A stretch of DNA of 63,723 nucleotides, filler included, from Reclinomonas americana ATCC 50394 (GCA_048213135.1; 15 parts of 15 records of this genome joined end to end with filler, not necessarily neighbours in it); one strand, 5' to 3'. Positions 1,503-61,046 are shown, numbered from the whole stretch's first letter. Notes: generated from the letters alone by a model not told the origin. Numbers and translations are program-made.

Positions 1503-2851
1503 CACCCAACGACCAACGCTCAAGCTCCCGCCCACAAACCATCGATCATTCCAATGACCACACGCGACTGCTCACGGTTTGCAAAGGCAGCCGTGAGAGC
1601 CTCAGCACGGCCATCCTTTGCATTCGCCAATATGTTGGCGCCGATGGAGAAAGAAGAATGTACGCTGCGTTAAGCAGGCTAAACACACTTTGGCATCCTC
1701 GACTCCGGTGCGCTGCAAAAACTGCTTGAATTCATCAAGAGTGCGGTAAGCAGCGGCACCAGCAACGAGGCACTCATTGTTGATTCTGCTGGTGATACTG
1801 GAGAGGGCCGAATTGATTCTCGACGCAATCTGCACGATGCAGATGATCGGCTTACTTTACGCGCACACACAAGACGGAGGGAGTGTATGTGCGTGTGTCT
1901 ATGGGAGAGAGAGAGAGAGAGAGACACACACACAGAGAAAACGACGTCCAAGCAGCGTACCTTCCCGGCAACCTCCTTCGCCCCGTCATAAGTCTCTACA
2001 ATAGCCTTGTACTTTGACAACCTGGGCGTGTTCATCACAGTTTCCTGGATGAGGTCGGGGTCCTTCTTGTGCCAGCGTTTGAGTGTCGCAAAGTCACCAC
2101 CGTCAAGGCTGCGGCGGATTGAAAAGCGCGCCACGGCGGCAATGGCTTCCTGCGCCGCGATGAAGTGAGAGCGTGGTCCACACGATGAGCAGCAATCGGC
2201 ATCAATCGAACGACACAAACCGCTGCCTTGCTGTCCAGCGTGGCAACCGTCTCACATGCTGCGTGACGCATCGCCTCAATGTCCTCGCACATCTTGGTGA
2301 TCTTGCTCGCAATCACGTTTGTGGTCTTGGTCAACTGCGTCTGCTCCGTGACCACCGACGCCAACAGCTTGGTTGCGTCACCAGCTGTTTGACGATTTGC
2401 GCGTTGACCTCACACATCAGTACTTCGGTGCGGTTCTTCTCCTTGCAGTGGCCCTCCTCAGTGAACAGGCCAAGGGCACGAACACCGTCACTGTCCGTAG
2501 GGACGCCGGCATTGCACAGGTACTGCGACATGGACCGCCTCTTGAAGGGCGGCTGCGAGCCGTCGTCGTCTTCGAAGCCATGGGCTCCTCGCTTGCGGGC
2601 AGACACAAGCATGTGGGGACCTAAACCACCGCCACCCACAATGGCGTTCCTGGGACTCATCTCACCTGTAATGAAGAGGTGCAGGAGTCTAAAAAACGTT
2701 CGACAACGTTACCCAACTGCAAACGACGCACGCAACTGCTGTAGGAGCTTCCGCCTGAGCTGGAGCGCAGAGCAGCCGGCGAGAATGGCGCCGCTGCCGT
2801 GGCCTCGGGGATGGAGTCACTGTTTTCATCATCAAACCGCAAGCTCATCAT
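1503..2851 (-). CDS. Multi-exon hypothetical protein with a coiled-coil segment; possible accessory ORF of the adjacent transposon; 3'-partial
   Basis: ORF pieces 2657-2851, 2331-2660, 2035-2364, 1679-2218 and 1602-1835 join in frame through GT-AG introns such as 2736-2666 and 2485-2409. Confidence 0.55.
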
Positions 2852-2992
2852 GATGAATCGAGTACGCGCTGCGGTACATTAGTACACTGCTCGAACGTGA
2901 GCAGCCCTTCTCTACACATGTTTCCCTCCTCATCTGACGTCTACTCTCCATTTGCATCTCATCTTTCTTCCTCTCGCGCTGCACTGTGAACG

Positions 2993-3346
2993 GTGCCCGA
3001 CAGTGCCATCAACCAGGTCATTGCACAGAGTCTACACAGTGTAGGCCTGCTCGATGCGCTTGCAGGCGTGTTGGCAAGGGTAAAGCGGGTCCATCACTCG
3101 ACAGGTAAACACGCGGTGCCCTCCAACAAGTGGCGCTGTTGGCGCTGCAGCCGCAAACCAAAGGCCTCTCAGCGCTCAAGTAAGTTCCTCAGACACATCA
3201 ACAGCAAGGTGTGCATGGGCGCGCTCTTCGTGTGTGTGTCGGTGCGTGTGTGTGTGTGCGTGACGGACAAAAGCTCACACTGCGGATTGACTTCATTTTC
3301 TGTCTCGACGTCGCTCTGCGCTGATGTGCACAGGCATGTGTTTGCA

Positions 3347-3382
<36 letters not shown>

Positions 3383-6300
3383 TCCCTTCCGTGGTGCTGA
3401 TGATCTCACACATGCACACAGAGCCACCGCATTCAGCTCGAGACAGTGGGCCGCACGATGTCTGCGGCAGCGACNNNNNNNNNNNNNNNNNNNNNNNNNN
3501 NNNNNNNNNNNNNNNNNNTTAATTAATTAANNNNNNNNNNNNNNNNNNNNNNNNNNNNNNNNNNNNNNNNNNNNCTGGAGGCGTTCACCGACGAGGAGCA
3601 TCAGCGCGTTGTGAACATGATTGAGGAATTCACTGCCAAGCAGATGGTACGTGCGCATGTGAGCGTCATCATGCTACTGTTGCTACTGGTGATGCGAGTG
3701 CCTGAGTTTGCCTGTGCGCACAGAAAGTCATTCCGCCCGACAACCCGTTCGCGCCTGCCAAATCACTCGAACACGCCCTTCTCATGCAATTCATCGAGTT
3801 GGTGAAACTCAGTCACAGCCAACAAGAGCTGCTTTATGCGCTTCTCACGTATCCCCGAGCCAACTTCAACAAGGACACCACCCCGAAGATATCCGACTGG
3901 CGGTGCAAGTTGAGCACATTTGGGCTTGCGGCGTCAGAGTATGTTGAGAGCGTCAAGCACTTCAACGAGCAACCAGGCCACTACATGCGGCTGGAGAAGG
4001 CCATTGCTCGTCAGCTGGCTTTGCCTGGTACACTGGATAGCCTCACACCTCGTCACTTGCATGTTACTGGCAAGGTATTGTGTGTTTCAACGCGCGCCAG
4101 TGTGTTGTGTCGCCCGCTCCCCGTGACGGCACCTCCGCAGACACCCGGCAGCGTTATTCGTCACGGGCCCATGACAGGGGCGCGAGTGAAGACGAAGGAG
4201 CTGCATGCTCTTGTCACGTATGCGACCCTCGGGAACGGCGAGCGCGTCGCTCTCTGGAAGAACTCTTTTGTGTGCGCTGCTGTCAACGGCGCGGACGTGA
4301 TTGCCAAGGTGCTGAATTCGTGGGATGTCGTTGAGTTGTTGATCATCATCCACTGTCGTTTGTGCTGGCATGCATCTCGCGTTGCCAACGTGTACTCTTG
4401 CGCATGTGGCAGGTGGGGCCCAACGGAGTCAAAAGAACCGTGGTGCAATTGTGGTTGTTTGACAGCCATCCGTATCCCTCAGTTGCGCCAATTCATGTTT
4501 GATTGTTGTCTCCTGCAGTAGCGCTGACATGCAGTGCTTAGCACCGCAGAATAATGTCAGCGTTTGGGGTGAACCAGCAGCAGATGTGGCTCAGCGCTTT
4601 GCTTGCCTCTTGGTGTGGCCGAGACATCCGTCAACGACGGCTGTTGTGGAAGTCACACTCAATCCCGGGACGGTGCTCGGACGAGTTTCCAGTCCAGTGT
4701 TCCGATGGAACGATGTGGACATGCTTTCCGCCGATCGTCCACGCAGCGTCCCATTGCTGTGTGTCATTCCGACAACTGTTGTTGCCGGCGGCAAGATGGC
4801 CTTTGTGCAATGCACCGACGATCAGATTCGCGGCACTGAGTGTGGTGTCGCGCTGACGGTAGGCTGCTGTTGTTCTCGGCTGCTCATTTCGCAGTTGTTA
4901 GACTAAGAGAGAGAGACTCTCTTGATTGCAGTATGATAACACGATGGAGGTCGGCGCGGACGAAGTGGTGGTTGTATTTGTAAAGACAGACTATGATGAT
5001 TTCAAGGGTGAGTGATGTGGACTTTGTTTGTTGCCAGTAGCATGCGTGCACTGACTGTTTTCGTTGTCACGCTGATGCAGAGTCACTGAGCACACGCGCG
5101 CAGCGACCAACAGGTGCATTGCACCTGGCGATTGTCAATCGGCCGGCCGATGAGCTGCGTTCTGGAAAATCCCGCTACTACCCGTGCGTTGGTCTCACGC
5201 CACCAGGTGCGCATACGCGGGTAGTGATGAGCCGTATTTACGCTCGAGGTGCCTTACGCTCGAGAATGGTCTTGCAGAGACGAGCAACATGTCAGCATAC
5301 AAACAGCTCACCATTTCTATGAACCGGCTTCGAAATGGCTTTGTGGCGGAGATCAATGGCCGGAAGTTGTGGGTAGTCGCCGACCTGCTGTTCCACTCAG
5401 CCGACGGCCCTGAGGCGCAGGAGGCTGCTGCGGTTATTCGCCAGCTACACTGCTGGTGGTGCCATGGTGAGTGTGTGTATTGGAGCACTCCCATTGTGTT
5501 GCGTAATCCTCACTTGCACGGTGGTGCATGTTGGCTGCAGGACTGGATCGAATGTTATCCACTGCCCGCAGACTGCCGCACCCTGTCGTTGTCCGCGACC
5601 AATTTGTCGGTGTGCGACCGAAGGTGGTTTGGCGCAATCTAGACCACACACGTGAAGTGGTTGCGAAGAGGAAGACGTCGGTTATACTGGGTGTGGCAGG
5701 TGACAGGAACCCTGCATCGGCACTCGTCACCGACTTGCCGGACTTTAACGTGCGTGCCTGTGTATGTGTTTGAGGTTTTCCCTCGCCTTAAAAAACTCAC
5801 AACCGCGCGCCACCCCCCCGCATGCAGGTTCATCGAGATATTTTGCTGCCCATCGATCTTCACATAGTTGCTGAGGGCATTGCTGTCCGTTTCCGCGCCG
5901 CACTCGAGACCTGCTTTCTGCGTCTCGTCGACGAGAAGCGCATCGTCGGCCAGATGATGTCGGACCTGGCCGATTTCATAAGTGCCATGTCTGGCGACGA
6001 TCCGACACTGGCTCGCGTCATTTACTCATTCGCCAACAACTGTGGTTCTTTCCTTGGACGAGACTGGATCGCCGTAACTCATGTCATCATGTTTGCACTG
6101 CGAGGTGAGGCTTCTTCCAGCCAGCAGGCCACGCATACACACGCGCATGCATTCGGAGTTGAGCGTGAGCACTCACACTGAGAATGCTCGCTTCACGCAG
6201 CGGTGCTCGTCAAGTACTGTCCGTCGTATTCGGAGGCCGAGCTGTTCACGTTGATGGAGGATGAGCCAGCTTTACTGCTCTTTCCGGCGCTGGCGGATTA

Positions 6301-9770: not shown

Positions 9771-12700
9771 ATGCTACTACGTGATCGCAAGCGCTTGTTT
9801 GCCACCGGCCTCATGGCCATTGGCATTCTGAGTGTGATGATGTGGCTCAATGCCCGCACGCTGTCATCCGCGAATGGAGGAGGAGGAGGAGGAGGAGGAG
9901 GCAGCCGAGGTGGTGTCTCGCAAGTGGTGGCCGATGTTATTGGGGCCGCCGCTGTCGAGTACGACGCCGAGGAGCAAGTGGAGAGGCCGGTGGTGGCCGA
10001 CGGTGACAGCGACAGCGCGACTCAAGTGTTATTGGAGGCAGCGCACCGTGCACTCGAGGCCGGCAAGGACGGCATCAAGAAGGAGTTGGAGGACTCGGTG
10101 AGTGATTGTTGCAAGTTGAGACAAAATAGACACACACTGCACGCTCTCTCTCTCTTTCACTCTGTGAGTGATGAGCGTTTCCTGTGTGCTGTCACTCATT
10201 ATCTATCTTTCAGTGAGTGAGTGAGTGAGTGCCTCCGTCGTCGTCGTCTGTCTTCTTTTGATGATCCTCCAAATCGAACATGATTTCACTCAGCACTGGC
10301 ACGCGCGATATGCGCACTCACCTCACACACAGCGAGAGAGAGGCTGAGGGAGAGAGAGAGAGAAAAGGAGACACACACACGCACGCAGTCGTCAGGAGTC
10401 GAATCGGCACTTTTTGTCGTTGCCTCGTGACCATTCGCGGAGGGTCACGACGCTGCGGGCAGCGACTCACTGTCTTCGATATCTGCATTGCAGACTTTTG
10501 ATTTTCTCAAGTCCATCCACGAAATGTTGGGCCTGGAGCCTCCAGAAGTGGAGGAGAAGGAGGAGGAGGAGGAGGGAGAGGAGGACGGCGATGGTGTCGA
10601 AGGAGAGGAGAGCAGTCCACTGGCACCGGTGCCTGCTGATCCGCTGCCCTCGCACGTGGTGCAGGCGCGAGACGCGACCACGCTCAAGCAGTTTGTGGAT
10701 CGGAGGCCGCTTGTGTTTGCCTCGCTGATCACGTTCACTGGCAGTTGTGTACCCTTTCACAGCTTGCCTTGCGTTCGTGTCACTCACTCTCTCACCATTT
10801 GTGATACAGAGGATCCAATGTTGGTGTTGCGAAACGTGGTCGGCAGCATTCACGTGCTCGGCGATCCCGACGCGAAACTCGTCTTGTACCTGCTCGGCTT
10901 TCCCAAGATCGTCAAGGGCGAGATCAATATCTTTCGCAATGTGGAGATTGTTGATGTCGTGGTGCGTTTGTGCTTGAAATGGATGCTTGTGCATGCACAC
11001 TGCCGCTCATACTGGTACGCAGGAGGAGTTCATGCAAGCGAAGAGCGACTACGCATCGGGCGAGTACCGCTACACTGTCAGCGAATTGGGTGCCGCAGTG
11101 GGCGACTGGTCGGCCTTGGTACGTGTGTCATCATGTTTCTCGTGCTCATCCGTGTTGTGGTTTGTGGATCAGTTTCTCATGTGCAGTAATGTCAGGTGAT
11201 TCACCACGCCGTGGAGAAATACGGCAAGGTTCTCTTCTTTACGCCGCTGTTCTTTGTCCGCGCCGGCATCCTCGACTGGGCGCAGGCCAATTTGGCGTCG
11301 GCAGGTTGCATCTTCATGCGACCTCTCGGCTCCGACAAGTTCACGGCGCACGTGCAGGGCTACACCATCGGCTCCGCGGCATATGAGCAAATCATTGTTC
11401 CGCGAGCCCGCTGCTCTTTCGCCCCGTGCGCGACGGCCAGCGGCACCATTGCCGACGATATCAATGCACGCGCTCTCAGCCTGAGTTGAGTTTGTCTGTG
11501 TCACTCTCGCAGTTTGCGTGTTACGAGGACTGATGAATGATACGACGCAGAATCCTTAACTTTGGAAGAACGCATCGGCGCCGGCTACTTCGAGGCCTAC
11601 AATATCCCCGTGGACGAGGCCACCGGCAAGGAGCGGTACGACTGCGACATACGCTTCAACACTGACTGGGCGTTCACTGCCACACCTGTGATGAACTTGA
11701 CGGCTGAGCAACGTGCAGCCAAGGTTCGTATGTGTTTGTGTTTTATGCCGGTGAGGCGCATGGCACTCACCCCACACTGTGCGCAGGAGGCTGCGGTGGC
11801 CGGTCGCCACCGCATTGCGTTGGGTGTGCCGACAACATCGCGGAAACTGCGCATCACTCGACCGCGCGATTTGCTTCTCTTTTCCATCCTCATTCAGTCC
11901 ACACTCATGTCAATGACTGGTACGTGCTGTGCCGCCTTTCTCACTCAGCTATTGCGCAAGAATGTTGTCTCACCATGTCGATATTGGTCAGAGTGGGAGC
12001 TGGGTCACGTGTCGATCGAGTTCTACGTCGGCTTTGACGAAGGCGATCCGTACTGGGACAATGTCAACAATGTGGCCGAGGTGCAGGCGTACTTTGAGCA
12101 GGTTTGGCGGCAGTTCCCCCTCGCATCCCGTCGTGCACGTGCTCTCATTCAGCTGATCCTGCCTCGTGTGTCTTTGCAGCTCACGCACGCATATCCCAAC
12201 ACGTTCCGTCTGGAGCTGATGCGCTTCCGCCAGTCGCACGGCTGGACAACGTTCTTGTGGAACGGTCTGTTTGAGCGTGCCATTCTCGACGGCTGTGAGT
12301 GGTTCTTCCAGGTGCGTGCACAACACGTAGCTCTCATGTGAGCATCGCTGACCGCGGCGGCGTGCCTGTGCAGGTCAACGACGACTTGCAGATCATGTCG
12401 CCTGGGTGGGCCACAGAGCTCATGAACCGGCTTCGCGAATCACACGTGCGGCCGTACTTTGGCATTGCCGGACCGCACGACGTGAACAACGACCGTCTCA
12501 TGACGCAGACCTTTGTGCACAAGACGCATTTCGACGTCATGAAGCGCATGTACTTTCCGTGGGAGTTCAAGAACTGGTACAATGACGACTGGGCCACGGC
12601 TGTCTACGAGGCCTCTGGTGCGCGATTCTGGGCGCATAATATCAAGGTGCGCGTGGTTGCAGTGTTGTTTCTTTTGTTGTATTACGATCGCTGACCGCGC

Positions 12701-13074: not shown

Positions 13075-14746
13075 TCACGGAACTCCACGCGACAGCAGAT
13101 CGCGAGCCACCTGTTGGATGGCCTCCCTCTCCGCCACCAGCGACATGGACGAACTGATGTCGGTGTCGGTCGCAACCGCCGGCGACGCCTGCACCTGCGT
13201 GGCAAGTGTGGTGAATCGCTCGCGCTGCCACATCAGCCGCCGCCGTTGTTGCCAGCCGACGGCGCCATGCGCATCGGCGCCGGTCAAATCGTTTACAGTG
13301 AGGGCGGTCTGATTGACGGGCGTTAGCGGCTGCGATTTGGGGGTGGCGGATCGACGGCCACTCTGTGACGACGGAATACGGTCGTCCTCGGCCGCGTCGA
13401 CCCACAGCTCACCCACGGCGGGAGCGTGGTAGTGCGTGGCCGACGTGTCAAGTGGATCACTGGCCGGCAACTCAAATGCAGCGGCTTCGACGGTCACCAC
13501 TGGCGGCACACTCGGCCGTCGCTGGCGTATGGGTGGGGTGGTGGTTTGAATCGGCGGTGGTGGTGGTGGCGAGCGTGGTGACACGGCAAGGTATTTCTGC
13601 ACGCGATGAGTGAGGGAAGACGCCCTGACATAGCGGCTATGCAGAGATCATACCTCGGGAATGGCGTCACCGGTTTCGTCGCTCCTTACGGGGGGTGTGG
13701 CAGAACGCCGTGGCGGTGGAGGTGGTGCGCGGGTGGCCCTGCACGCATGCGAAAGCATGAGGCACAACGGAAACAGTTGTGGGGAAGCACCTGCACGGGA
13801 GCGCACGTCTCACAAGTGTTCTCCTGCAGAAGGCATCACCGCCACGAAGCGGCCCATGGCACCGACCAGTTGCTGGATCATATCACGCAGTTGCTGCACC
13901 TCACCGACCAGCGCGGTTGTGGCGGAGGAGGGAGCTTCGCCAGCCGCTGCGGTGGCTGTCCCAGTTCCTGCTGTTGCTGTTGTTGTGATTGGTCGCGGAG
14001 GAAGTGGACTCTGCTCGACACTGTCTGCTTGGCGAGAAAGGAGTTGGTGAAAACGTGCAGGAAACCGACGCATTCGCGTGTGCACGCAANNNNNNNNNNN
14101 NNNNNNNNNNNNNNNNNNNNNNNNNNNNNNNNNTTAATTAATTAANNNNNNNNNNNNNNNNNNNNNNNNNNNNNNNNNNNNNNNNNNNNAGCCAAGAGAA
14201 TCGCCAGCTCTTTCTCTCTCTTGCCGCGAACCTCGATCGATGCTCGTCGTTGTCGTCGTCGCCGTCGTCGTCGGTTTGAGAGACGCGATGCGTTGCGATG
14301 GTGGCCTCGGCGGAGGCAGCTGTGGCTGCGGCTGTGCGAATCGCGAGCGAGCCAGATCATCGGCCAGCAAGTGACTCGCCTCTGCACGACTGAACTGCCG
14401 ACCGGCCTCGAACGCCTCCTCCAGCGATGGCACTGCAGTGTGTCATGAGAAGGACAACTCACTGCGAGTGACACCACTGCCTGGAAAAAACGCGAACCCT
14501 TCCACTCTGGAGACCAGTGTCGCGGCTGTGGACGTACTCGACCCGATGGAGGCACCGCCAGCAGCGCGTACTGTGACCACAGTTAGGATGATCAGCAGCG
14601 GTTTCGCGCGCGAAAAATCAACGAGAAAATGTCACACCTCGTCTCTCTGTGTACGCGCGTGCAAAGTGAGAGGGCGACGAGACAGTGTACACACCGCGGA
14701 GTGGGAGGGACGCAACTCGATGGTTGGCCATGGGAACTCCATTCAT
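13075..14746 (-). CDS. Hypothetical Pro/Ser/Thr-rich protein spanning a gap
   Basis: Coding-like ORFs 13075-13602, 13810-14085 and 14190-14600 with GT-AG boundaries. No recognisable domain; start uncertain. Confidence 0.45.
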
Positions 14747-14940
14747 CACTGTGCCACCTGTGCATCGATGGTGATTCTTCTCTCTCACTGCGTCTTCATT
14801 TTCATCACACGCAACGAGTGGCAATGGTCGCTGTTTGAGTCACACGCTGTGCGCCTCCTCCTCCTCCTCCTCCTCGACCGTCCATGTGCAAGCGATCACG
14901 TGTCAATGTGGTCATTTACTCTCACGCTCTTCGTTGTTGT

Positions 14941-20014: not shown

Positions 20015-20140
20015 CGAAACGCAACATTGACTTTTTCGCTNNNNNNNNNNNNNNNNNNNNNNNNNNNNNNNNNNNNNNNNNNNNTTAATTAATTAANNNN
20101 NNNNNNNNNNNNNNNNNNNNNNNNNNNNNNNNNNNNNNNN

Positions 20141-21176
20141 AGCGAGAACAAGCTGGGAAGTGGCTCCGATCTGCACACACACACATTCGTGATTACGAGT
20201 GGCAGCTTCCCCGCTCCTGTTCCAGCGCATCGACGCAACTCGCTGTTGGTGTCGAGCTGCAGGTGGAAGTAGGGATCGTCCTCCAGAATGAGAATATCAA
20301 ACTGCTTGGCCAGGTCAACCACGCGCTGCCGCCGCTCGCGCGACAGCGTGCCGCCAGAGGGATTGCTGCCCGTCGGCACCAAGTACAGCGCCTTCGGGAA
20401 TCGCTCGCCCGGGTACAGCTCCTCAAAGTTCGCCAAAATACGCTCCAGCTCCTCCGGCACCAGTCCATCGGCATCGGTCGGCACACCCACCAGATGTGCA
20501 TTCAGTGGTCGCAGGTAGGAGAGCGAGCCCGAGTACAGCGCTGCGCTCTCGCACACGTCAACAACAACAACAACACTCGGCGGCGAATGCGGTGGTGAGA
20601 GAGCAACGCAACGATCCTCCACCAGCAGACTGTCACGCTCATTCAGCAGCATGCTGAAGCTCATTGTCAGTGCATCCTGCGATCCCGTCGTCACACAGAT
20701 ACCAAACTCTGACACACAGTTTGAGGAGAATGTGTGCATCTTCCACCAAGAGAGAGATACACACACACCCTTGGACAGTGGTTGACCAGCGCCTCGACCG
20801 TGGAACTCGGGAATGTAGTCCTCTCGCAGCCACTTGACGAGCGGAGGGAAGCCCTCTGTGGGAAAGTACTGCAATGCATCGCGCACGTGCTCCGGAGCCA
20901 CTTCCACTTGCGTGGCACCTCCACTCGGAACACACTCCGGTTTGAGAGTGATGGTCAGACCAGCGATGGGGAAGGTCTCCGGGTTGGGAAGGCCACCGCC
21001 CAGTGACAACATGCCTGTGAGAGTAGAGTGTGTGAGTGAGAGTGTGTGACATGGCGTGTGTGTGTGCGTGTGCGTGCGAGTGTACCAGGCAGCTTGACGA
21101 GCGGCATCAGCGCGCGAATGGCTGATGGCTGGCGGCGCTTGCTGACATCGCTGAGGAACTTCTCCACGGAGATCAT
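20141..21176 (-). CDS. AADAT: PLP-dependent class I/II aminotransferase (kynurenine/2-aminoadipate aminotransferase, Aro8-like), 3'-partial
   Basis: Motifs RRQPSAIR..GMLSLGGGLPNPETFP, ALQY, TTGSQDAL, LLVEDPLYSG, LYLVPTGSNPSG, ILEDDPYFHL. Confidence 0.9.
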
Positions 21177-43780: not shown

Positions 43781-44220
43781 CACGCTCTCCCCTTCCCTCT
43801 CTCTCCTCTCCCTCCATCAAAAAAATCAAGCAAAAAAATCAAACAAACGTGCACACCGTCTGCTGCTCTCCAAAGAGCGGATTGAGCTCGGAGAAGCGGA
43901 CTTTGAGCTGCGGGCTTGCGCGAAAGTTGGCGCCCCAAATCGTCACGGTGGTGCCGCCATTCTGCGGACCCGTGGTCGGGAAGAGACGCGTCAGGCGCGG
44001 CACTGGCGGCTTATTCGACGCCTTGTTGTACTCTATGTGCAGCCGGGAGAACATAAAGAGCGCGCGTGAGTTTTGTGTGTGCGTGTTTGTGCGTGATTTT
44101 CCACACACACAAGGCACGCGCGCAAACGAAACGATTGAAGACGGCGGTTTGTGCATTCGAGGAGGGCGACATCAGTGCCAGCACCAGCGATATGCTGGCG
44201 AGGATGTAGAGCAGCTTCAT
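40467..44220 (-). CDS. Secreted IPT/TIG-repeat protein with a C-terminal DUF1565-like (pectin-lyase-like N-cap) module; spans a gap
   Basis: Signal peptide MKLLYILASISLVLALM; IPT motif LFPTTGPQNGGTTVTIWGANF; VTVSND..FTYY; IYVSPSGHDLQGDGTSQYPFATIQRGID..DTIVLRKGVYRGVGN. Confidence 0.72.
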
Positions 44221-44715: not shown

Positions 44716-47271
44716 TTACTTGTAGCAGTCGAGGAAGTCCTGGCCGCCGGCCGCCGCCATCCTGCACAGCCAGATCTTCTTGCACTCGCCGGTGCAGGAG
44801 CCGCGTGGGCGGCTGGTGTCGTACAGGGTCATGAAGGTGTCGAAGAGGGTGTTGGCGGGGCTGTTCTCGGCCATGCGATTGACCTGCGTGTACACACACG
44901 GGCGTGCGTGAGAGGGAATAAATACAAAGCGAGAGAGGACTGCGCTTACCAATTCCATCCACGACGCGGGCGACATGTCCTGATGCATACAAGTGAGTTG
45001 CAAGACACGCTCTGTGTTTCTCTCGCGCACACACGCAGCACACCTTCAGCGAGTATGTGGACGAGGCTGCGTACTCGAGCTGCCAGGTGATCTTGCCGGC
45101 GGGAATGTCCTTGGACAGGTCGGAGATGTAGGTGCGGACATCGACGATTTGCTGCGCAAACAGGTGTCATATGGCAGGTGGTAATGAAGAGCGGGAGGGA
45201 CATCGAACGCCACGCACCTTGGTCGTCTTGTCGTACAGGTACTCGCGCACTGAAGGGTTGTGATCGGTGTAGGTGGTAATCGAGGGCGCGACGTACATGA
45301 CGTGCACAGGCTCCTTGGTGTCGGGCTTGCGGAGGATGCGGAAGCTGCGCACAGCACAACACGCAGTCAGATATTTTCCGAAACTCAACAGACGCTCCCC
45401 ACGAAACAAGTCATTGTGCCTGTCACAGGATCGCCAGTGAGCACCAATCATCGCGCGCAAGCACAACCAGCAACCACATCAAGACGCAACGTGTGACCGT
45501 ACACGGAGCCGACCAGGATATCGGCGTACTGCATGCCACAAGAGTGAGCGCTTGGATGGGAAAGAGAGAGCGAGAGAACACACGCGCGCAACCTTCAGCA
45601 GAATGTCCTGGAACTTGCCAGTGTACGTGGGCCTGGGAGGGGGCAATGGATGAGCAGAGCGCAAGAGCAGTCGAGTGACATGATACGCAACAGCGCGTCG
45701 GGTGTGGCACCGCCGGACCACGGAGCTGCTCAGAGGCGTCAGAGAGAGAGGCGGTAAGAGAGCACACAGACACGGCTGAGGCACGAACCCATGGGAATGT
45801 GAGCGGCCATGAGGACCTTCTCGCCAGCCTGTCGGGCGGCCGAGAACGCACTCTCCATCCACACCAGCTGCTCCGACGGATCCGTGTCGTTGGCGTACAG
45901 GTAAAAGTTGAGACTGTGCATGACGCACACCAACGTGAGATGGTACGAACAGGAGGCACCCACGGCAACGCAGACACACACGCAACGGATCGGCCCACTG
46001 CGTGTTGACGACAATCTGCAGAAGAGGAGAGAACCCACGCATGGTCAACAGGCACACATGAGGGAGTGGGTAGTCTGTGCGTGCAACTCACCAGACGGAA
46101 TCCACTTTCGAGCAGCGCCGAGTAGTAGCCGCCTGTGCACAAAAAAATAAGCGACATGCTACGATATTCCCTCACGCGACACGCACCATGACGGAAGGTG
46201 GCATGACCGCTGGCCGGAATCATGTTGCCCCACTGCATTACCACAGCAATCAGCAACGATTCAACACGCACACGCCGGCATGAACAAGCGCACATACCAT
46301 CTCTGTCAGCGGTGCCATCAGCCAATCAGCAGCCGGCGGCGGCGGCAACTCGTCCACCGGGTACGTGTCGTGGTTGCTGTGGAGCGTGAGAACACATACA
46401 CGGAGAGAGAGAGAAAGCTCGAACGCGCACGCAACCCAATCAGCGGGAACACCGGCACAGAGCCCTGAGGAGACGCTTTTCAGCCACACACACTCTTCCA
46501 ATAACTCACTCACAAGCGAGCGCAACGCACCGCAAAGTACTTGTTGAACGTGTTGGTGATGTTACGCAAGTCGTTCAACACATATTGCTGGCCTACATGA
46601 CATCAATGAGCGAATGGCGCAGAGAGTGAAGAAACAAAAAAAAGCTCAACTCTCCAGCCACAGCTCATGCGACGGATTATCGCCCGTCCACAGCACAAAG
46701 TCGGGATTGAGGCTCTTGGAGAACTCGAGCGCACTCAGCAGCATTCCATACGTTGCTACAAACACTCTCTCAGAAGACACAAACAAGCAGAAGAGGAAGA
46801 AGACGAAATGGAACACTCATGCACCATCGCAATTGTAGTCGCCCAGCGGATCGGCCTTTTGCGAGACTTTCGGGTCGAACTCGCGACAGCAGAGCACTCT
46901 TGTGTACACACAGAGGCAGTCAGTGTGTGTGCGTGAGAGCGAGAGTGAGCGAGAGTCAGACACACTCTGTGCAAATCGGCGACGACCCCGGAACATACTG
47001 CTCACACAAGCAAAAGAGTCAGTGTCGCTCGAGGAGGCAAGTGAGAGAAGGGACGCACATCGAGTTGAATGTGCAAGTCGGTTCTGTAACGCACACAAGT
47101 GTGTGTGTGAGAGAGAGGCAGTGAGTGAGAGACAGTGTGTGCGCGCAACAGTTGCAGAAAGGAGCCAATGTTTGCATCGCGTTGTTGTGTGTTGCCACGC
47201 AGCAAGGGAGTTGCATGTGCGCTGGCGATGATAAGAAGGAGGAGGAGGAGAGAGGCAGCAGTGCGTTGCAT
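44716..47271 (-). CDS. Secreted acid sphingomyelinase-like metallophosphoesterase (SMPD1/SMPDL3 family), about 17 exons
   Basis: Signal peptide; spliced motifs TDLH, GDYNCD, WTGDNPSH, LIG|NHD, AAHIP, YGHT|H, APSITTY..NPSVR, WQLEY. Confidence 0.92.
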
Positions 47272-47329: not shown

Positions 47330-47376
47330 ATGGAGGCATTGAATGCGCCACCGTTCACGCCTCCTCCTGCGCGAGT

Positions 47377-47407
<31 letters not shown>

Positions 47408-48277
47408 GAGTGTGTGTGTGGAAGAGTGTGAAAGTGTGTGTGCAAGAGTTTGCGAAAGTGCATGAAAATGTGTGGAAGAGTGTGTATGTGTGTGTGTGTG
47501 TGCATGAGTGTGTGCTAAGTGTGTGAAAGTGTGCAAGTGTGTGCAGTATGTGTGAAAAGTGTGTGTGTGTGCGTGTGTGTGTGTATAAGTGTGCAAGAGT
47601 GTGTGTGCAAGAGTGCAAAGTGTGTGAAAGTGTGCAAAAGTGTGCAAAGTGTGTGTTTGCAAGCGCGTTTTTCTGATTGATTGTGCAGGCGCCACCTCCT
47701 GCTCCTCCGCCTGCGCCTGCGCCTCCCCTGCCTCCTCCTGTGCCTGCGGGTGTGAGTGCGAGTGCGTGGCCTCGTGCGCACATTGTGTGGCCTCCTTGCT
47801 CATCTGCTGCGAGTGATGATGGTGTGGCGGCGACGTTGCGCGATGCGGTGCTGCGTGGCGATGCGGATGAGAGTGATGCGTTGATGAGTGCGGTGGTGCC
47901 TCCGACGTCGAGTTGAGTGCGCCTTGCAGTGACTGCCTCTCATCATTCTTCTTCTCCTTGTCTTCCTTCTAGATCTCTATGTCTCCTTCTTCTTCTTCTT
48001 CATGTTGTTGTTGTTGTTCTTCTTCTTCTTTCTCTTCTTCTTGTTCTTGTTCTTGTTCTTGTTCTTGTTCTTCTTGTTCTTGTTCTTCTTCTTCTTGTTC
48101 TTCTTCTTCTTCTTCTTCTTCTTCTTCTTCTTCTTCTTTTCTCTTCTTCTTCTTCTTCTTTTCTTCTTCTTCTTCTTCTTCTTCTTCTTCTTCTTCTTCT
48201 TCGTCTTCGTCGTCTTCTTCTTCTTCTTCTTCTTCTTCGTCTTCTTCGTCTTCTTCTTCTTGCGTCTTCTTCTTCTC

Positions 48278-48312
<35 letters not shown>

Positions 48313-51300
48313 TCTTCTCCTTCTCATTCTTCTCCTGCTTCATTCTCCTTCTCCTTCTCCTCCTCCTTGCTCCACCTTGCTCCTCCTCTCCTCCTTGCTC
48401 CTCTCCTCCTCCTCCTCCTCCTCCTCCTCCTCCTCCTCCTCCTCCTCCTCCTCCTCCTCCTCCTCCTCCTCCTCCTCCTCTTCCTCCTCCTCCTCCTCCC
48501 TCTTCTTCTCCTTCTCCTTCTTCTCCTGCTTCATTCTCCTCCTTTTCCTGCTCCTCCTCCTTTCCCTCCCACCCTCCCACCCCTCACCCGCCTCACACAG
48601 TGGTCCCACTCTTTGACGTGCATCACGACGTCGATGCCGAGTACATCAACGCGCACCAGGCCGTGCTGCGACTCAAATCGCGGCGGCGGTGCTCGGCGGT
48701 GGGCTTTGTGTGCCTGGCGCCGCAGTGTGCCGCGCTGGTGAACAAGCTGATTGATCGGGATGTATTTGAGGAGCACTCGCCTGCGGCGGCTGCCGGGCAA
48801 CCGTTTGTCGCCGATGTGTACAATGATGATGCCACGGGCATTATGTATTTGCGCGTGCAAGCCATGGATGCCATGTTGCAACCGGGCGGCGACGGCGACG
48901 GTGGCGAGTACGACTTGTTTGCGCAGACGCAGGAGCGTGAGTCGGCGCTCATTCGTGCCGCACTGATTGCGTTTCTTGTGTGCCACGCAGTTGTCGTTGC
49001 GTCGTCTTTCACGTGTATTCCGTCCGGGGCACAAAAGACTAATCCCAGTCAATCAATGCGTGCAGCTCGTGGTGCCGGGCGGTGGCTTTTCGTTTTCCGA
49101 TTTGCGGCTCATCCGCACGCTGTCGCGCTTGAAGCAGCACCCGGAGATGAACTTGCTGGGCATGGTCGCCGATGCCCTCGGCACTGACAGCATCAAGCGC
49201 AACTCGGTGTTGTGGCCCGGCATCTGTACACCCTCGCTGGGCATTGTGGTGACCGAGGTGAGTGACCAGCATCCATTCGCGACTATTTCATGCATCGCCC
49301 TCACATATTTTGTTCCGTTTCCGCCAGCCGCGAACGCGTCTCGATCTCGCGCAGGCACGTCAGCACATGCAAATCAAAGTACGTGCACTCATACGGCGCT
49401 TCTCTCGCAGCAAAGAGAGCGATTCGCGGTGCGTTTGCTGCTGTTTCGCGCTTCTTTTTGCAACAGTGTGTGCCACGCAGAGTCTCACATGACAAGCAGA
49501 TCGCCGCTGATTCATTTGGAGCACAAGTTTCTGTTTGTCGTGTGGAGTTCGGCGCGCACTCCAGGCGCCACTGGTACGCCGCGGCATGCGATGTTGGACT
49601 CGCACTCGTTGCTGACTTGTCCACCCTCGCGCAGTTGGCGTGTCTGGTGTGCGTGAGTTTCTCGCCAATCACCAAACGCACCTGCTGAAGCAGACCACGA
49701 CCTCGACTCGGCGGTTTGAGGTGGGCCTCCTGGACTTTTGTTCTTGGTCGTGTGTGTTGTCTGTGTTGCTTATGTCACTGTGCCAACAGCTGCCATCGTC
49801 GCTCTACTTGTTCCAGTCGATCCGCGCACTGTTCGATACGCTGCTGGTGGGCCGACGGCGGCCCGCCGTCACGGAGCACCTGTGCGACATTTTGCACGAA
49901 TTCCTCTCACCCGAGCTGGCGTTTTCGCGTGTGTACGTCCCTTTTACCCTTTCTCTCTAATTCACTCGAATCCCTCTTCTCATGCCGCCGCTGTCATCGC
50001 AGGCGGTGCGCCCAAGTGCTGAGTGCTGCAAGCGACGAGTATCGAAACTCACTGCAGGAATCCGACTTGTCCGAGGCGCGCCACCAGCTGCTGGTTGGTG
50101 GTGCTCTCCCTGTTCTCGCCGCGAGCTGCACTGTAACACTTGTGGCGTGCGCAGCTGGGCAAGGCACTCGCTCTCCTCGCATCTCCCTCTCTCGGCCCGA
50201 TGCGGCAGCAGACCGCCAAGCGTCTCGAGCAGTTCTGCAACGATCTGTACGAGCGTGCAAAGCGGAGTGCCGCTCCCGCTGTGCCTGTCGCTCCGTCTGC
50301 ATCTGCTGCGGCGCCTGCAGCCGCACAACGTGAGCCTGTGCCGTGGTGGCAGCAGGTGCGCGATGCGAACCCTTCTTTGTTCCTGCATGCATATCCTCAC
50401 CGCGCGGTGGCAGACTGACGCATGGGAGGACACGGTGGCCGTCAAATTGCGTGTTACCAAGTTCTCCGCCGGTCATGTCGTCGACAAGCAGGTATGAGGG
50501 GAGCAGGCTCGCTTGTGCGTGCGTGTGTGTATTCATGCTCGCTGCAGGAGTCGCAGTCACCGGTCATTGTGCAACGCGTCCGGGTGGACTACTACGATCC
50601 GGTGGCCGGTGTTCGCAGTTTCCACCCTCGCCTGTTGCACGCCGCCGATGGAGTGGAAGAGGGACAGCTCGGGAGCATGCATCTGCTGCCGTGCGCGGCA
50701 GTGCTGTCCACGGCCACAGCCGTGTCGTCGCAACTTACCCTGGATCCGCACGAATTGTCACGTCGGTGTGTGTACTTGTTGTAAGCACGCTCAGCCCCTG
50801 CAAAATGATTTGAAGCTCTTTTTCGATCGTGCAGTGATCGTGCCACTGAAGACGCACGAGCACGAGTGGTGGCCGCGGCGACGGCGACTGCGGCAGCCGC
50901 TGGGCGGCGCGTGGAAGCAGAATCGGGCCTCCTTTCCGTCTCTGCCAGTGCGCGCCGTCGTCGAAGACGACGCGGTGTGCCAGGTGTGTGTATATGCGTG
51001 TCTGTTGATGTGCGCATCAAACGGGCCGCTGATGTGTTGCATGGCAGGGGAAGACGGCGACGGCATGTTTAGTGCCGAGGATTTTCCACCGCTGGCCTCG
51101 ATACCCGTACTGCCCGACACTTCTGGTCGCAGCCGAGCGGCTGTGGAGGACGACGCCGATGCTGTGCTGCACAGTGGTGTGGGCGGCGCTAGTGGCAGCA
51201 GTGCAACCGCTGCGGCTGCTGCTGCCACACTGGCAGCTGCGTCGTCTCTCGGTGGCGTTGCGGCGACTGTTGGCGGTCGCTCGGCTCTCAGTCTTGCCTC

Positions 51301-54230: not shown

Positions 54231-54378
54231 GGGAGAAAGAGGGGAATGAGGAGAAGGAGGGGAGGGAGGAGGAGAGAGNNNNNNNNNNNNNNNNNNNNNN
54301 NNNNNNNNNNNNNNNNNNNNNNTTAATTAATTAANNNNNNNNNNNNNNNNNNNNNNNNNNNNNNNNNNNNNNNNNNNN

Positions 54379-54671
54379 GAAGAACACTCTTGCTGGGGAG
54401 CGCCCTGGTGTCCTCTCTCTTCACAAGCACGCAACACATCCGAGACGAGGCTGAACTGCTGCCCAAGGAACGTGGACGACGGCGTGCCCGGAGCTGCGCG
54501 CTTGCTCTGCTTGGCAGAGGGCGTGGAGAGATCATCACCAACTGCTTGCTGATCGCCTTCACCATCGTCGCCAGTGCTGATAATCATCGTTCCGTCAGAG
54601 TCGCTGCTGCCTCGACGCGTGGCAGTGACCAAGGCGCCTGCACGCTGCGCGATGGCCGCGCTGCTCTTCAT
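54379..54671 (-). CDS. First exon of a hypothetical gene (MKSSAAIAQRAG...), 3'-partial
   Basis: ATG downstream of AT-rich sequence and open to the gap. Only this repeat copy continues into unique sequence. Confidence 0.45.
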
Positions 54672-57276: not shown

Positions 57277-57327
<51 letters not shown>

Positions 57328-59440
57328 GAGGAGGAGCGCGTACGAGACGACGACGACGACGACGACGGAGGNNNNNNNNNNNNNNNNNNNNNNNNNNNNN
57401 NNNNNNNNNNNNNNNTTAATTAATTAANNNNNNNNNNNNNNNNNNNNNNNNNNNNNNNNNNNNNNNNNNNNACGACGTACCACGACGTAGTACGACGACG
57501 ACGACGACGTACGGCGGTACGGTACGGTACGGTACCGGTACGGTACGGTACCGGACGACGAGTGCGGGGGCGAGAGAGAGAGAGAGGCGGGAGAGCTGCG
57601 CGGTCGTCTGGAGCGTAAAAATAAGCATCTCCGCCGACGCTGCGGGCACACACTCAGACTGAGACAGTGTGGCGCATGGCGTTTGTGGAAAAGTATGTCA
57701 ACGTACCACCACCACCACCCTGAAAGATAAAGTGCGTGAAAATGACAAAGCCCCACATCTTCGCCAAGGTGACGAAAGACACACACACACGCACAAACAT
57801 GCAGCGAGAGAGAGGCGTGGTGAGTGCTCATCGATCGTGACTGAGAAAGACTGCGAGGATCAATCGAGAATCGATTGTGCTTCTTATCTTATCTCACTCG
57901 CGCTGCAATACTCTCTCACACATACACCTGAGAGGAGAGAGGAAGAGAGAAAGATATGACGGCAGCGACGGACAAAAGAACCTGTCCGCCGTCTGTGTGC
58001 AAAGCACGCACCACCCGATAGCATGACAAATCCGCTATTGTTGGTGCTGTCGGGACGAGTCGGTGCCACAGCAAAGCGCGCCGACACCGCCTCGATGCGC
58101 GAGTCGCCGTTCACCGTGCCCTTGAGGACAAAGCTGGAGCGCGAGGCCGAGCTGCTCGACAGCGAAAAGTTGTCACCACGAATGCGCCCATCGTTGCCGG
58201 CAGCCGACTGGCGGATCGACAGAACACCCATCACGGCCACGGGGATCGACGGCACCGACGCAAACTGGTACAGGGACGACACGCTCACCAACTGCGCATT
58301 GCCGGGCAAGTCAACATTCGGTGACGTGGCGCACACACGTGATAAACAGAGACGCAACAGTCGAGCTGCCCTTGTTCACCGCATCCGTCAACCACGCCTT
58401 GCTCGTCAGCGTGCGCTGACCGTCCATCGACAGCGCATTGGTCTGGTGCACGTAGTACGCCAGGTAGCCTATCACAGAGACGGGTGGGTCACACTTCTCC
58501 TCTCTCTCTCTTCACGCTTCAGTGAACGCAACTCAGTGTGATGGTGGGTCCCGGCTGACCGTTAGTCGATACGCCGTAGCAGCGAGATGACAGCCTCGCC
58601 ACAGTCACCACCGGCTCCGCACAGAATGCAAAGGTGCCATCAGTCGGCTCGTTCGCCTGGGTGGAAATGCGTTCGTTGTCCTGGCTGCCGACACTGGTGA
58701 AGCCGAGCAACACGCGCGGGCGGCGGAAGAACTCGCGCGCAAATGTGAACTGGATGGCGGTCGTTGTCACTGCCAGTGTCGACATGCTTGGCTTGGCGGC
58801 CAGAGGCGTCGACGAGGGCAAGGGGCCGCTCGGACTGAGGCCACCGGCAGTCATAAAGCCGGAGGTGAACGACTCCTCCGCCGGCACGTACAGTCCATTG
58901 TTGGCCGCCACGCACAGCTTAAAGGCACCACCGCCGGTCGAGCCGTTCGGGGTGATGGTGGCGCGGTACAGGCGGCAGCCAGTGATGAACTGGCACGCAT
59001 CGGCACCGGCGCTCGCGAACGATGCGCCGACACTGCCCGTCAGTGTCGAGTAGTCCGACAGAGTGGCGCAGTCGACGCCGGCCGGCACCAGCTTGAAGCT
59101 CGTGCAGTCGGTGAGGTTCTCGGCAGAGGAACCAATCACAATCGAGTTGGCGCTGCCGTACTTGAGCACGGGCGGAGCGGCAAAGGAGATGATTGGAGTC
59201 GACGAGGCGGCGGTAACGATGAGTGGGACTGTCTGCAGGCGGTACACGGTGCTGCCGCCGGCCTGGAACCTGCAGGAGGGGAAGGGTGAGCGAGGGGAGG
59301 AGGGAGGGAGAGAGAAAGAGAGTCAAGCACAGCGAAGTGCGAGGATATGAGGAGGAAGAAAACCACGTGGACATAGAAGATAAGCTGAAGAGAGGATGCA
59401 AGAGTGCTCAAGGGCACAGTCATTACCCCCCTCCCTCCCG

Positions 59441-59518
<78 letters not shown>

Positions 59519-61046
59519 GACGACGAGAGTAGAGGACGGACGGACGACGCGACCGAAGTACGTACGACGACCGACCAACCAACCAACCTAACCGTAACGT
59601 AACGTTAACTTTTACCTTTTCCCTTCCGTTCCCGTTNNNNNNNNNNNNNNNNNNNNNNNNNNNNNNNNNNNNNNNNNNNNTTAATTAATTAANNNNNNNN
59701 NNNNNNNNNNNNNNNNNNNNNNNNNNNNNNNNNNNNAGAGAGAGAGAGAGAGAGACCGACAAGATGTAGAGACGGCGGAGCCCAAGATGACTGCACACCA
59801 CACCACAGATTATCTTCCTCTTGCTCCCCACACGTCGACGCAACTTGCCACACAGATAGTACACGCCCGGTGTCGCCAGCGTGCACGAGCCAGTGGCCGT
59901 CGCACCCAGAGCACCCTGCGCGAACAACGCGCCAGTGGCCACCGAGAACACAGCCTGCTGACCCGAAGCATCGCTGGTCGACAGTGTGGCACTCGAGTTG
60001 GCAGCCGGCGATCCGCTGCAGTCAGCGGCCGCGTACAGGCCAAACGAGCCACCAGCGCCCAGTTGACGATTGGCAAAGTGATTACCAGTCACCGTGAGGC
60101 GATAGTCGGCGAGACCATTCACCAGCTGCGGCGTCCTGTTTGCCGTGCTGATGGCGTCTGCGAGTGTCGGAAAGGAAGAGAGAGTCAGCGACAGAGTGAC
60201 GATGATGACGACTGCGCGCATGTGTTGACTGAGACGCAACAGACAAACACCGTGGCGACAAACTCGTTGCGAGCGGCCGTCCCCGCACCGTCCACGTCGA
60301 TGCACAGGTAGCGCTCACCACCATTGCCATCAGCCGACGCATTAAACGTGAGCGAGGCAGCAGAGTTGGAGTTGACTACAGTGGTCGGCGACACGCCCGT
60401 GCACGAGCGGTCGAGGAAGAGAGTGGCGGTGGAGGCAGTCGACCAGGCAATGGCCGAGCCACTGACATTGATGTCGACAATCTGGCCAGCGGTGCCGGCC
60501 TTGATGGCGATGTTGGAGGGCGAGATGACTGAAAGAACAGAAATGGGCGCAAAAAATGAGTTTCAACGGTCGGCTTTCGCGCGCAAGATCTCGGAGATAG
60601 AATCACGGAAGGAATGTTGCAACAGCGTGTGTGAACAGTCGCAGAGAAAGGCACATAATGAGGAAAGAGAGTGGAATAGGGAGAGTCGGCGGAAAACCAG
60701 AGCGCAGCACGCGAACAGATAGCAAAATATTCACGAAAAGGAGACATGTCGACAACATACACAATAGACGCCTTTACGAAGGCAGTACAGTGAATGGCAC
60801 ATGTACAAGATGAGAAGAAGCTCATACTGCCAATGCAGGGTTGATATCATCACGCCAGACCAAGAAGGCGGAGCGCGCGCGAAAAGGCATGATGCATTGG
60901 AATGTGCGGTGTGGTGTTTTGGTACTGATTCGTGCGTTCGTGTGGACTCACCTGCGGCGGCTGCAGCGCTGCACAGCACAGTCAGCGACAGCAGTGCGAC
61001 GAGGCACAGCAGCGCGGTGGGGCGCAAGAGGGTGGGTCCAGCCATG
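55896..61046 (-). CDS. Large secreted protein spanning two gaps: signal peptide, beta-rich repeats, H-type-lectin-like domain(s), and 10 C-C-CC-C-C repeats
   Basis: MAGPTLLRPTALLCLVALLSLTVLCSAAAA; repeated Y/F-x-LC modules; IQFTFAREFFRRPRVLLGF..YLAY; YVTWAAIG; terminal exon with ten Cx6-8Cx5CCx2-3Cx4-6C units. Joining across the gaps is inferred. Confidence 0.65.

Follow-up and report, generated by a model that had tools for sequence, protein, structure and literature searches.

We report that the protist DNA analyzed here, a 63.7-kb stretch of Reclinomonas americana ATCC 50394 (GCA_048213135.1; hereafter the window, taken at its full length), uses 5′ splice sites, or donors, of two classes, and that the intronic consensus of the second class lies one base further into the intron than that of the first. 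With the exon-intron boundary written as a slash, the consensus of class 1 is G/GU(G/A)NGU and that of class 2 is (C/G)A/GUUGCGU. Class 2 is a discrete second donor class, mixed with class 1 inside the same genes and found at about 30% of window introns. The existence of two donor classes is in itself already known; the new element is the one-base displacement, for which a shifted pairing register of U1 is put forward below as the best-fitting mechanism.

A first-pass annotation, made from the sequence alone, had listed 40 class 2 donors. A GT is present at each of these positions on the strand named, and all 40 match GTT(G/T/A)(C/A/T)G; the T or C that had been proposed for +7 holds at 39 of them and fails at 31258, which has A. 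Their heptamers comprise 22 GTTGCGT, 4 GTTGCGC, 1 GTTGCGA, 4 GTTGAGT, 1 GTTGAGC, 3 GTTGTGT, 4 GTTTCGT and 1 GTTACGC. The exonic base at -1 is A at 23 sites, T at 8, C at 6 and G at 3, the last being exactly the three sites (36849, 45592 and 46435) that had been singled out as following an exonic G. There are 33 copies of GTTGCGT on the two strands, whereas 100 dinucleotide shuffles give 15.8 ± 3.6 and no shuffle reaches 33. Since GT(A/C/G)GCGT shows no such enrichment (31 occurrences against 39 ± 6 expected in shuffles), the enrichment is specific to T at +3. Of the 33 GTTGCGT copies, at least 28 are called as donors, 22 by the first-pass annotation and 6 further ones by the gene-finder runs described next.

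Donor use was evaluated with two procedures. The gene finder, a two-strand Viterbi parser trained on the window itself and used for statistics only, was run both with explicit donor models and in a donor-agnostic mode that requires only GT. It mishandles exons of about 30 nucleotides (nt), failing on five of seven benchmark peptides, and because of this weakness of a self-trained parser on tiny exons the class proportions and the list of class 1 donors given below are only approximate. The exons it skipped include the S6 exon of an ion channel gene and the exon before the GNHD motif of a phosphoesterase gene. The second procedure is blind to donor motifs: a dynamic programme aligns protein to genome, accepting any GT..AG pair 40-350 nt apart as an intron at flat cost, with homologues fetched using single exons of an aminotransferase, the channel and the phosphoesterase.

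The majority of the listed positions represent true 5′ splice sites, and the introns that begin there are short, ordinary ones of the GT-AG (U2-type) kind. When the gene finder required only GT, GTTGCGT was the commonest donor heptamer (12 of 111 donors); its share of all GT sites is 0.4% (33 of ~8,300). Each run with donor models found between 26 and 30 of the 40. Counting recovery in any run or use by at least eight homologues, automated support extends to 34 of the 40, eight of which are fixed by homology. These eight junctions were placed without the donor motif, seven by spliced alignment and one (39074) by collinearity on the Pfam GOST_TM profile, where the flanking exons reach position ~65 and, after one split codon, resume at 67, the upstream exon alone scoring only E 0.11. 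Alignments of nine phosphoesterase homologues run gap-free across the conserved G/NHD and GHT/H junctions, and seven class 1 donors of the same gene are used in seven to nine of the nine. In the aminotransferase, a read-through tblastn alignment leaves an exact 24-residue gap at 20612. The cut points that had been tied to conserved motifs were thereby reproduced at VEDP-LY (20612, 9/9 homologues), at the pore-to-S6 spacing of the channel (31014, 8/8), at GNHD (46435, 8/9) and at GHTH (45490, 9/9), and the CHAVV-LVVP cut at 48996 was found by two gene-finder runs, with the spliced peptide present.

Between 20257 and 21024 (-), two introns of the aminotransferase gene, one of them the class 2 intron at 20612, keep the frame and contain no stop codon, and a 520-codon open frame consequently reads through both; retention of the in-frame intron would insert 24 residues and would not truncate the protein.

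To characterize the classes, donors were modeled on positions +3 to +9 only, with exon bases unseen. Class 1 is defined by G at +5, and class 2 by T at +3 and G at +6 in the absence of G at +5. The 132 GT donors divide into 70 of class 1, 37 of class 2 and 25 unclassified, with mixture weights of 0.57-0.59, 0.31-0.33 and 0.1, respectively. At about 28-35% of donors, class 2 matches the proportion of roughly a third of introns that had been claimed for it. The exonic base, which played no part in the assignment, separates the classes: G occupies -1 in 34 of 70 class 1 donors and 3 of 37 class 2 donors (Fisher p = 1.5e-5), in 24 of 46 and 1 of 19 when the donor-agnostic parse is used (p = 2.7e-4), and in 7 of 7 and 1 of 7 in the homology-fixed sets (p = 0.0047). 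Background GT sites with the same intronic patterns (2,381 and 246 sites) carry G at -1 in 17% and 15% of cases. Likewise, A precedes 23 of the 40 listed sites against 46 of the 246 background sites (19%; p = 5.6e-8). The difference between the number of canonical and shifted pairs that a site can form with U1 has two modes among donors, separated by a dip at 0, and a single mode at 8,159 background GT sites. The donors thus show dependence on G(-1) and bimodality in place of a single unimodal logo indifferent to the -1 base, and the division into two classes that had been proposed is borne out. Some of the class 1 calls with T at +4 are probably spurious and lie inside (GT)n runs, and many of the GTGTGT calls that have a non-G base at -1 may be artefacts of the parser there.

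The displacement was quantified by scoring the 40 listed sites with class 1 columns, using columns outside the class definitions. A shift by +1 is preferred over no shift by 230 bits, contributed by +4 (155), +7 (55) and -1 (22). T is found at +7 in 33 of 40 class 2 sites and in 16 of 70 class 1 sites, the latter having T at +6 in 56 of 70, and conservation ends at +7 in class 2 and at +6 in class 1. It is thus reasonable to describe the two classes as one block whose cut points are a base apart. The block is tighter in class 2, where C fills +5 in 32 of 40 sites, compared with a mixture of T (34), C (19) and A (16) at +4 in the 70 class 1 donors; the information content is 1.12 bits at +4, 0.90 at +5 and 1.32 at +7 in class 2, and 0.72, 0.51 and 1.13 bits at the corresponding +3, +4 and +6 of class 1. 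A side observation concerns the donor at 45788 (-), g/GTTCGTG, which has G at both -1 and +5 together with T at +3 and is used by one of nine homologue alignments. Together with the GTTTCGT of four listed sites it presents the block G(G/T)TTCGT cut one base apart, in parallel to G(G/T)TGCGT.

Whereas the motif, its use at donors, the division into classes and the displaced consensus are shown by the sequence analysis, the RNA that reads class 2 and its register are inferred. The best-fitting mechanism, to which we assign about an even chance of being correct, would be a +1-displaced pairing register of U1 and probably also of U6. The conserved block of class 2 (G, C, G, U) and its exon-side preference would stand one nucleotide 3′ of their class 1 place, and the 5′ end of U1 would pair displaced by +1 through A(-1):U10, G(+1):C9, U(+3):A7, G(+6):C4 and U(+7):A3, with U(+2) facing C8 as a mismatch. 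After hand-over, the ACAGA box of U6 would probably pair with +6/+7 rather than with +5/+6, while the cut site would still be set by the GU dinucleotide itself. Taking the U1 5′ end to be AUACUUACCUG, as printed in Tan et al. 2016, the 40 class 2 sites form on average 3.0 Watson-Crick pairs in the canonical register, 5.3 when shifted by +1 and 5.2 with a bulge at +3, compared with 5.7 for class 1 in the canonical register; G-U pairs add 1.5 to the shifted and 1.8 to the bulged register of class 2. The +1-shifted register had already been proposed in the first-pass annotation, and the proposal stands in part: the displacement and the gain from 3.0 to 5.3 pairs speak for it, whereas a weak duplex, a mismatched C(+5) and an A(-1) that is an extra feature do not.

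These and several other points weigh against a displaced U1 register, or against the data on which it is built. The U1 sequence is assumed for this organism, and all counts come from one 64-kb window and in part from the self-trained gene finder. The predicted duplex with canonical U1, in any register, averages -1.8 kcal/mol for class 2 and -5.6 kcal/mol for class 1 under a model that has neither pseudouridine nor proteins, and among 48 sites the displaced C4:+6 pair forms in the minimum-energy duplex of only 22. In the shifted register the common C at +5 is mismatched with U1 position 5, and the pairing A appears in only 5 of 40 sites, so the tightness of the heptamer is not explained by pairing strength to canonical U1. 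The weak duplex and this mismatch leave room for a U1 that differs at positions 5-6, for a second U1 or for selection mainly at the U5/U6 stage. Because class 1 has no preference for A at -2 (17 of 70), the A at -1 is an extra feature of class 2 rather than a displaced part of the class 1 motif, and it could instead reflect pairing with loop 1 of U5. The bulged register, as the figures above indicate, yields as many pairs as the shift. Finally, five of the listed donors (4482, 27918, 28563, 33351 and 47375, all +) were never recovered and have weak support, and 47149 is used in only one of nine homologue alignments. The same low use is seen at 45691 and 45592, and at 45592 six of nine homologues prefer GTGTGT at 45583 instead. 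Among channel homologues, 30841 is used by one of eight and 31258 by none of eight, both sites lying in poorly conserved protein regions.

Other ways of reading class 2 have to be set against the displaced register. Canonical pairing of U1 (and U6) with one bulged U at +2/+3, as for human sites, is in our judgment quite unlikely. It equals the shift in pair number, it could gain pairs from C at -3 (17 of 40) and G at -2 (15 of 40) with G11 and U10, and the bulge is the commoner non-canonical register type in human (Tan et al. 2016, PMC4856993). However, a bulge leaves -1 opposite C9, where G would be expected, and it does not call for a T, the only base enriched at +3. Because the -1 base is enriched in A, which would face U10, and not in G, the shift is favored, by 21.7 bits in that column. 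Also unlikely is a standard register read by a lineage-specific component that co-evolved with GUUGCGU, whether an additional U1 paralogue, a U1 with complementarity to GC at positions 5-6, a changed U6 or U5, or some protein factor, even though it would account for a heptamer tighter than class 1 by the information figures, for a G(+4) and C(+5) that pair poorly with canonical U1, for a predicted duplex of only -1.8 kcal/mol, and for the preference of both classes for G then C where canonical U1 favors A then A. The 5′ end is the most conserved stretch of U1, and standard pairing with A/GUUGCGU would need five or six changes in it, whereas the displaced register needs none; moreover, GC-rich green algae prefer GUGCGU with canonical U1. 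There is some chance, if a small one, that the lineage keeps a third, dedicated major-spliceosome donor class, A/GUUGCGU, read by a co-evolved U1 paralogue, by a U1 matching GC or by an adaptation of the U6, U5, U1C or LUC7 type. Under such a dedicated class, displacement of the helix relative to the cut site would be a routine, built-in mode for about a third of introns and not a tolerated exception.

It appears improbable that class 2 is defined by something other than U1 pairing and is this lineage's version of the known intron-side class (NN//GURAG), which would be chosen mainly at the U5/U6 stage, A(-1) serving loop 1 of U5 and GCGU serving U6 through pairing of +6/+7 with the ACAGA box across one spacer base. 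A review (PMC11732430) reports that G(-1) anticorrelates with a strong intronic consensus in 5′ splice sites generally, and argues for commitment at the transfer to U6; class 2 does join a non-G base at -1 to a strong intronic consensus. Nevertheless, in the known class the consensus sits undisplaced at +3 to +5 or +6, where class 2 has T(+3), C(+5) and G(+6), and class 1 already holds members with GUGAGU or GUGCGU and a base other than G at -1. Selection at U6 would, in addition, itself need the one-base displacement, and it overlaps to that extent with the displaced register. Very improbable, in contrast with all of these, is that class 2 is an artefact of manual splicing, that GTTGCGT lies near the donor but not at it, or that the sites belong to a family of introner elements. 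Six of the 40 listed sites are indeed unsupported, and the protein evidence is compatible with sliding both intron ends by one base. Such a slide would, however, destroy the YGCAG/ acceptor common to both classes, and an artefact would not sit well with eight junctions fixed without the motif or with the enrichment of the motif in donor-agnostic parsing. Against an introner family stand the dispersal of class 2 introns over many genes, most of which also hold class 1, and the lack of matches between their bodies.

Beyond the donor, the two classes are alike. Both have a median intron length of 73 nt, the same acceptor hexamers (YGCAG) and similar branch-like motifs (CTCAC, CTGAC, CTCAT) about 18-22 nt from the intron 3′ end; intron phase differs weakly between them (p = 0.058). 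Class 2 introns are present in 20 of the 32 predicted genes with classed introns, and 18 of these 20 also contain class 1. BLASTN comparison of 37 class 2 intron bodies gave no class 2 to class 2 match at E<1e-3, and the sole long intron matches in the window are three copies inside a tandem gene repeat. Shared length, acceptor and branch motif, together with the lack of wider similarity, identify class 2 introns as ordinary GT-AG introns and not as U12-type introns or introners. U12-type introns, whose donor is RTATCCTT with a matching branch motif, resemble class 2 in supplying a second tightly conserved donor motif beside the major type in the same genes, but both the RTATCCTT donor and the U12 branch motif are absent from class 2, which has the acceptors, branch-like motifs and lengths of class 1. 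This candidate was rejected on the GTTGCGT donor together with branch-like motifs and YGCAG acceptors as in class 1. Introner elements are transposon-derived intron families, and the likeness is that numerous introns of one protist genome share their terminal sequence; the candidate was rejected since class 2 bodies are not alignable and conservation stops at +7. As a separate observation on the acceptor, the 3′ splice site consensus YGCAG/ is unusually explicit across ~143 predicted introns (G at -4 in 66%, C at -3 in 81%, pyrimidine at -5 in 90%); the pyrimidine tract before it is only modest, and the parser may have sharpened the acceptor consensus.

Shifted-register 5′ splice sites in human genes were reportedly described by Roca and Krainer in 2009, and bulge registers of the 5′ splice site with U1 are said to have been described by Roca and colleagues in 2012. 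According to Tan et al. (2016, PMC4856993), human shifted-register sites are cut normally at GU with all pairs to U1 displaced by one position, as in the example oligonucleotide ACA/GUCAAGUAUA, whose exon ends in CA, and of 201,541 human sites the validated non-canonical registers together make up 1.5%. These sites share with class 2 a G at +6 and a U at +7, mispairing at +2, and A as the last base of the exon. They differ in being rare, all non-canonical registers amounting to that 1.5% against the 28-35% of donors in class 2, and in carrying a well-paired AAG (-6.5 kcal/mol) at +4 to +6, where class 2 has GCG and weak predicted pairing. Bulge and asymmetric-loop registers share with class 2 one extra nucleotide between GU and the pairs equivalent to +5G/+6U and have the same number of pairs; they keep -1 opposite C9, however, with a preference for G, whereas class 2 has G at 3 and A at 23 of 40 sites. 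Two anticorrelated classes, one dependent on the end of the exon (G at -1) and the other on the intron side, are described in a 2022 study (PMC9803359). The anticorrelation of G(-1) with the intron side is found here as well and is absent at background GT sites, but AG//GUNNN and NN//GURAG share one register, while in the window T is fixed at +3 and the intron-side consensus is set a base deeper into the intron. For the tandem donor of STAT3, PMC11162779 proposes non-canonical registers of both U1 and U6, so that, as may be the case here, U6 as well as U1 would bind out of register; that donor is a single human alternative pair and not a genome-wide class.

Judged by titles and the openings of abstracts, the matches listed for shifted pairing of small nuclear RNAs (snRNAs) were human, yeast, tunicate or methods work and included no lineage with a major displaced donor class; for GTTGCGT or GUUGCG, nothing on splice donors was present among the matches listed. 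Judged from the sequence, an exception that is rare in human is used here as a routine donor class, in a register that is putative. How the spliceosome keeps the cut site fixed during the hand-over from U1 to U6 and U5 is still debated, and work on displaced registers has so far been confined to a few rare human sites and to reporter constructs. With a displaced consensus at about a third of its introns, an organism would constitute a natural, genome-scale test bed for the snRNA or protein changes, if any, that turn the displaced register into a routine one and for the fidelity of cleavage. Gene finders with a single donor model will mis-annotate genomes of this kind; the parser used here skipped exons flanked by class 2 donors.

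Table 1. Class 2 donors, candidates and class 1 comparison donors in the window. Lower-case letters are exonic bases; gene-finder support refers to three runs, one of them donor-agnostic.
Feature	Coordinates	Strand	Evidence
Class 2 donor a/GTTGAGC, phosphoesterase	46644..46650	-	9/9 homologues (8 with 58-nt intron, 1 with other acceptor); all gene-finder runs
Class 2 donor g/GTTGCGT inside G-NHD	46429..46435	-	8/9 homologues, gap-free VFPLIg/NHD
Class 2 donor c/GTTGCGT	45980..45986	-	9/9 homologues
Class 2 donor c/GTTGCGT inside GHT-H	45484..45490	-	9/9 homologues
Class 2 donor t/GTTTCGT	45401..45407	-	8/9 homologues
Class 2 donor c/GTTGCGT, aminotransferase VEDp/LYSG	20606..20612	-	9/9 homologues; tblastn gap
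Class 2 donor a/GTTGCGT, Kv-type channel pore to S6	31008..31014	-	8/8 homologues, YAGR/ALTGV
Class 2 donor t/GTTGCGT, GOST_TM gene	39074..39080	+	Collinear exons on Pfam GOST_TM; all gene-finder runs
Class 2 donor candidate GTTGAGT	4330..4336	+	Motif; one gene-finder run
Class 2 donor GTTGAGT	11485..11491	+	Motif; three gene-finder runs including donor-agnostic
Class 2 donor GTTGCGT	22860..22866	+	Motif; two gene-finder runs including donor-agnostic
Class 2 donor GTTGCGT	23419..23425	+	Motif; three gene-finder runs
Class 2 donor GTTGCGT	24209..24215	+	Motif; two gene-finder runs
Class 2 donor GTTTCGT	24433..24439	+	Motif; three gene-finder runs
Class 2 donor GTTGCGT	24637..24643	+	Motif; one gene-finder run
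Class 2 donor GTTGCGT	34500..34506	+	Motif; two gene-finder runs
Class 2 donor g/GTTGCGT	36849..36855	+	Motif; one gene-finder run
Class 2 donor GTTTCGT	39831..39837	+	Two gene-finder runs; upstream exon ends at GOST_TM profile 245/246
Class 2 donor GTTGAGT	47912..47918	+	Motif; three gene-finder runs
Class 2 donor GTTGCGT, CHAVV/LVVP junction	48996..49002	+	Two gene-finder runs; spliced peptide present
Class 2 donor GTTGCGT	2730..2736	-	Motif; two gene-finder runs
Class 2 donor GTTGCGT	19391..19397	-	Motif; three gene-finder runs
Class 2 donor GTTGCGT	20233..20239	-	Motif; three gene-finder runs; masked block follows
Class 2 donor GTTGCGT	30835..30841	-	Two gene-finder runs; 1/8 homologues
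Class 2 donor candidate GTTGCGA	31252..31258	-	One gene-finder run; 0/8 homologues, variable turret loop
Class 2 donor GTTGCGT	41008..41014	-	Motif; two gene-finder runs
Class 2 donor GTTGAGT	41832..41838	-	Motif; two gene-finder runs
Class 2 donor GTTGTGT	43008..43014	-	Motif; three gene-finder runs
Class 2 donor GTTGCGT	43167..43173	-	Motif; three gene-finder runs
Class 2 donor GTTTCGT	44126..44132	-	Motif; two gene-finder runs
Class 2 donor candidate g/GTTGCGC	45586..45592	-	Donor-agnostic run only; 1/9 homologues, 6/9 prefer 45583
Class 2 donor candidate GTTGCGT	45685..45691	-	Two gene-finder runs; 1/9 homologues
Class 2 donor GTTGCGT	58526..58532	-	Motif; three gene-finder runs
Class 2 donor GTTGCGT	59838..59844	-	Motif; three gene-finder runs
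Class 2 donor candidate GTTGCGC, weakly supported	47143..47149	-	Motif; 1/9 homologues; no gene-finder run
Listed site GTTGCGC, not recovered	4482..4488	+	Motif only; weak local coding support
Listed site GTTGTGT, not recovered	27918..27924	+	Motif only; weak local support; gene finder put genes on other strand
Listed site GTTGCGC, not recovered	28563..28569	+	Motif only; ACACAG acceptor 76 nt downstream
Listed site GTTACGC, not recovered	33351..33357	+	Motif only; moderate local support
Listed site GTTGTGT, not recovered	47375..47381	+	Motif only; no good acceptor or frame found
Further GTTGCGT donor, outside earlier list	5498..5504	+	Two gene-finder runs
Further GTTGCGT donor candidate, outside earlier list	14710..14716	-	One gene-finder run
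Further GTTGCGT donor candidate, outside earlier list	14809..14815	-	One gene-finder run
Further GTTGCGT donor, outside earlier list	54429..54435	-	Two gene-finder runs
Further GTTGCGT donor, outside earlier list	58352..58358	-	Three gene-finder runs
Further GTTGCGT donor, outside earlier list	60234..60240	-	Three gene-finder runs
Class 1 donor g/GTGCAT (comparison set)	46819..46824	-	9/9 homologues, two acceptors
Class 1 donor g/GTGCGT	46525..46530	-	8/9 homologues
Class 1 donor g/GTATGT	46292..46297	-	8/9 homologues
Class 1 donor g/GTGCGT	46181..46186	-	7/9 homologues
Class 1 donor g/GTGAGT	46086..46091	-	9/9 homologues
Class 1 donor g/GTGCGT	45212..45217	-	9/9 homologues
Class 1 donor g/GTGTGC	45038..45043	-	9/9 homologues

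The window has a G+C content of 57% and is densely populated with genes on both strands, with many short introns (median ~73 nt). It contains 14 masked 100-base blocks between 1403 and 62502, each consisting of 44 N, 12 bases and 44 N, several of which fall within genes; the block at 20041-20140 lies in the aminotransferase, and homology checks end there. Single exons match the Pfam families of protein kinases, 3-beta-HSD, class I/II aminotransferases and voltage-gated-type ion channels, as well as EGF domains, TIG domains, GOST_TM and MED6. A Pfam search of 12 long stop-free open reading frames returned no real match, such frames being attributable to the high G+C content. Searches of the window with Rfam at the gathering threshold and with a transfer RNA (tRNA) scan returned no family, no tRNA and no snRNA.

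The gene at 44.7-47.2 kb (-) can be read as an acid-sphingomyelinase-like metallophosphoesterase, a name suggested by its GNHD and GHTH motifs and its homologues, its family being named by none of the tools. A 48-residue exon of this gene found 23 homologues by exhaustive protein search and none by word-index search. The best homologues of the 99-residue aminotransferase exon share only 49-54% identity with it and are scattered over an ichthyosporean, stramenopiles, a haptophyte and chytrids; a protein atlas yielded nothing usable. The six-transmembrane channel at 30300-32100 (-) finds its nearest matches in unnamed proteins and in short bacterial-type 'ion transporter' channels of ~236 residues, with 36-47% identity over one exon; named eukaryotic Kv families are not the closest.

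An open frame of 657 codons at 25143-27116 (+) encodes an extremely Ser/Arg/His-rich, low-complexity protein, over which the parser placed spurious antisense genes; the unrecovered donors at 27918 and 28563 lie downstream of it on the same strand. At 54331-55532 (-), a unit of ~350 nt is present in three tandem copies inside a predicted gene, with repeating peptide segments (ALVTA.RRGS.DSDGTMIISTGDDG...) and introns that are 87-93% identical over ~150 nt, which looks like a recent internal duplication. Microsatellites of the (GA)n, (GT)n and (CTT)n types are abundant at 47486-48300 (+) and throughout the window, where GAGAGAG occurs 251 times and GTGTGTG 228 times.

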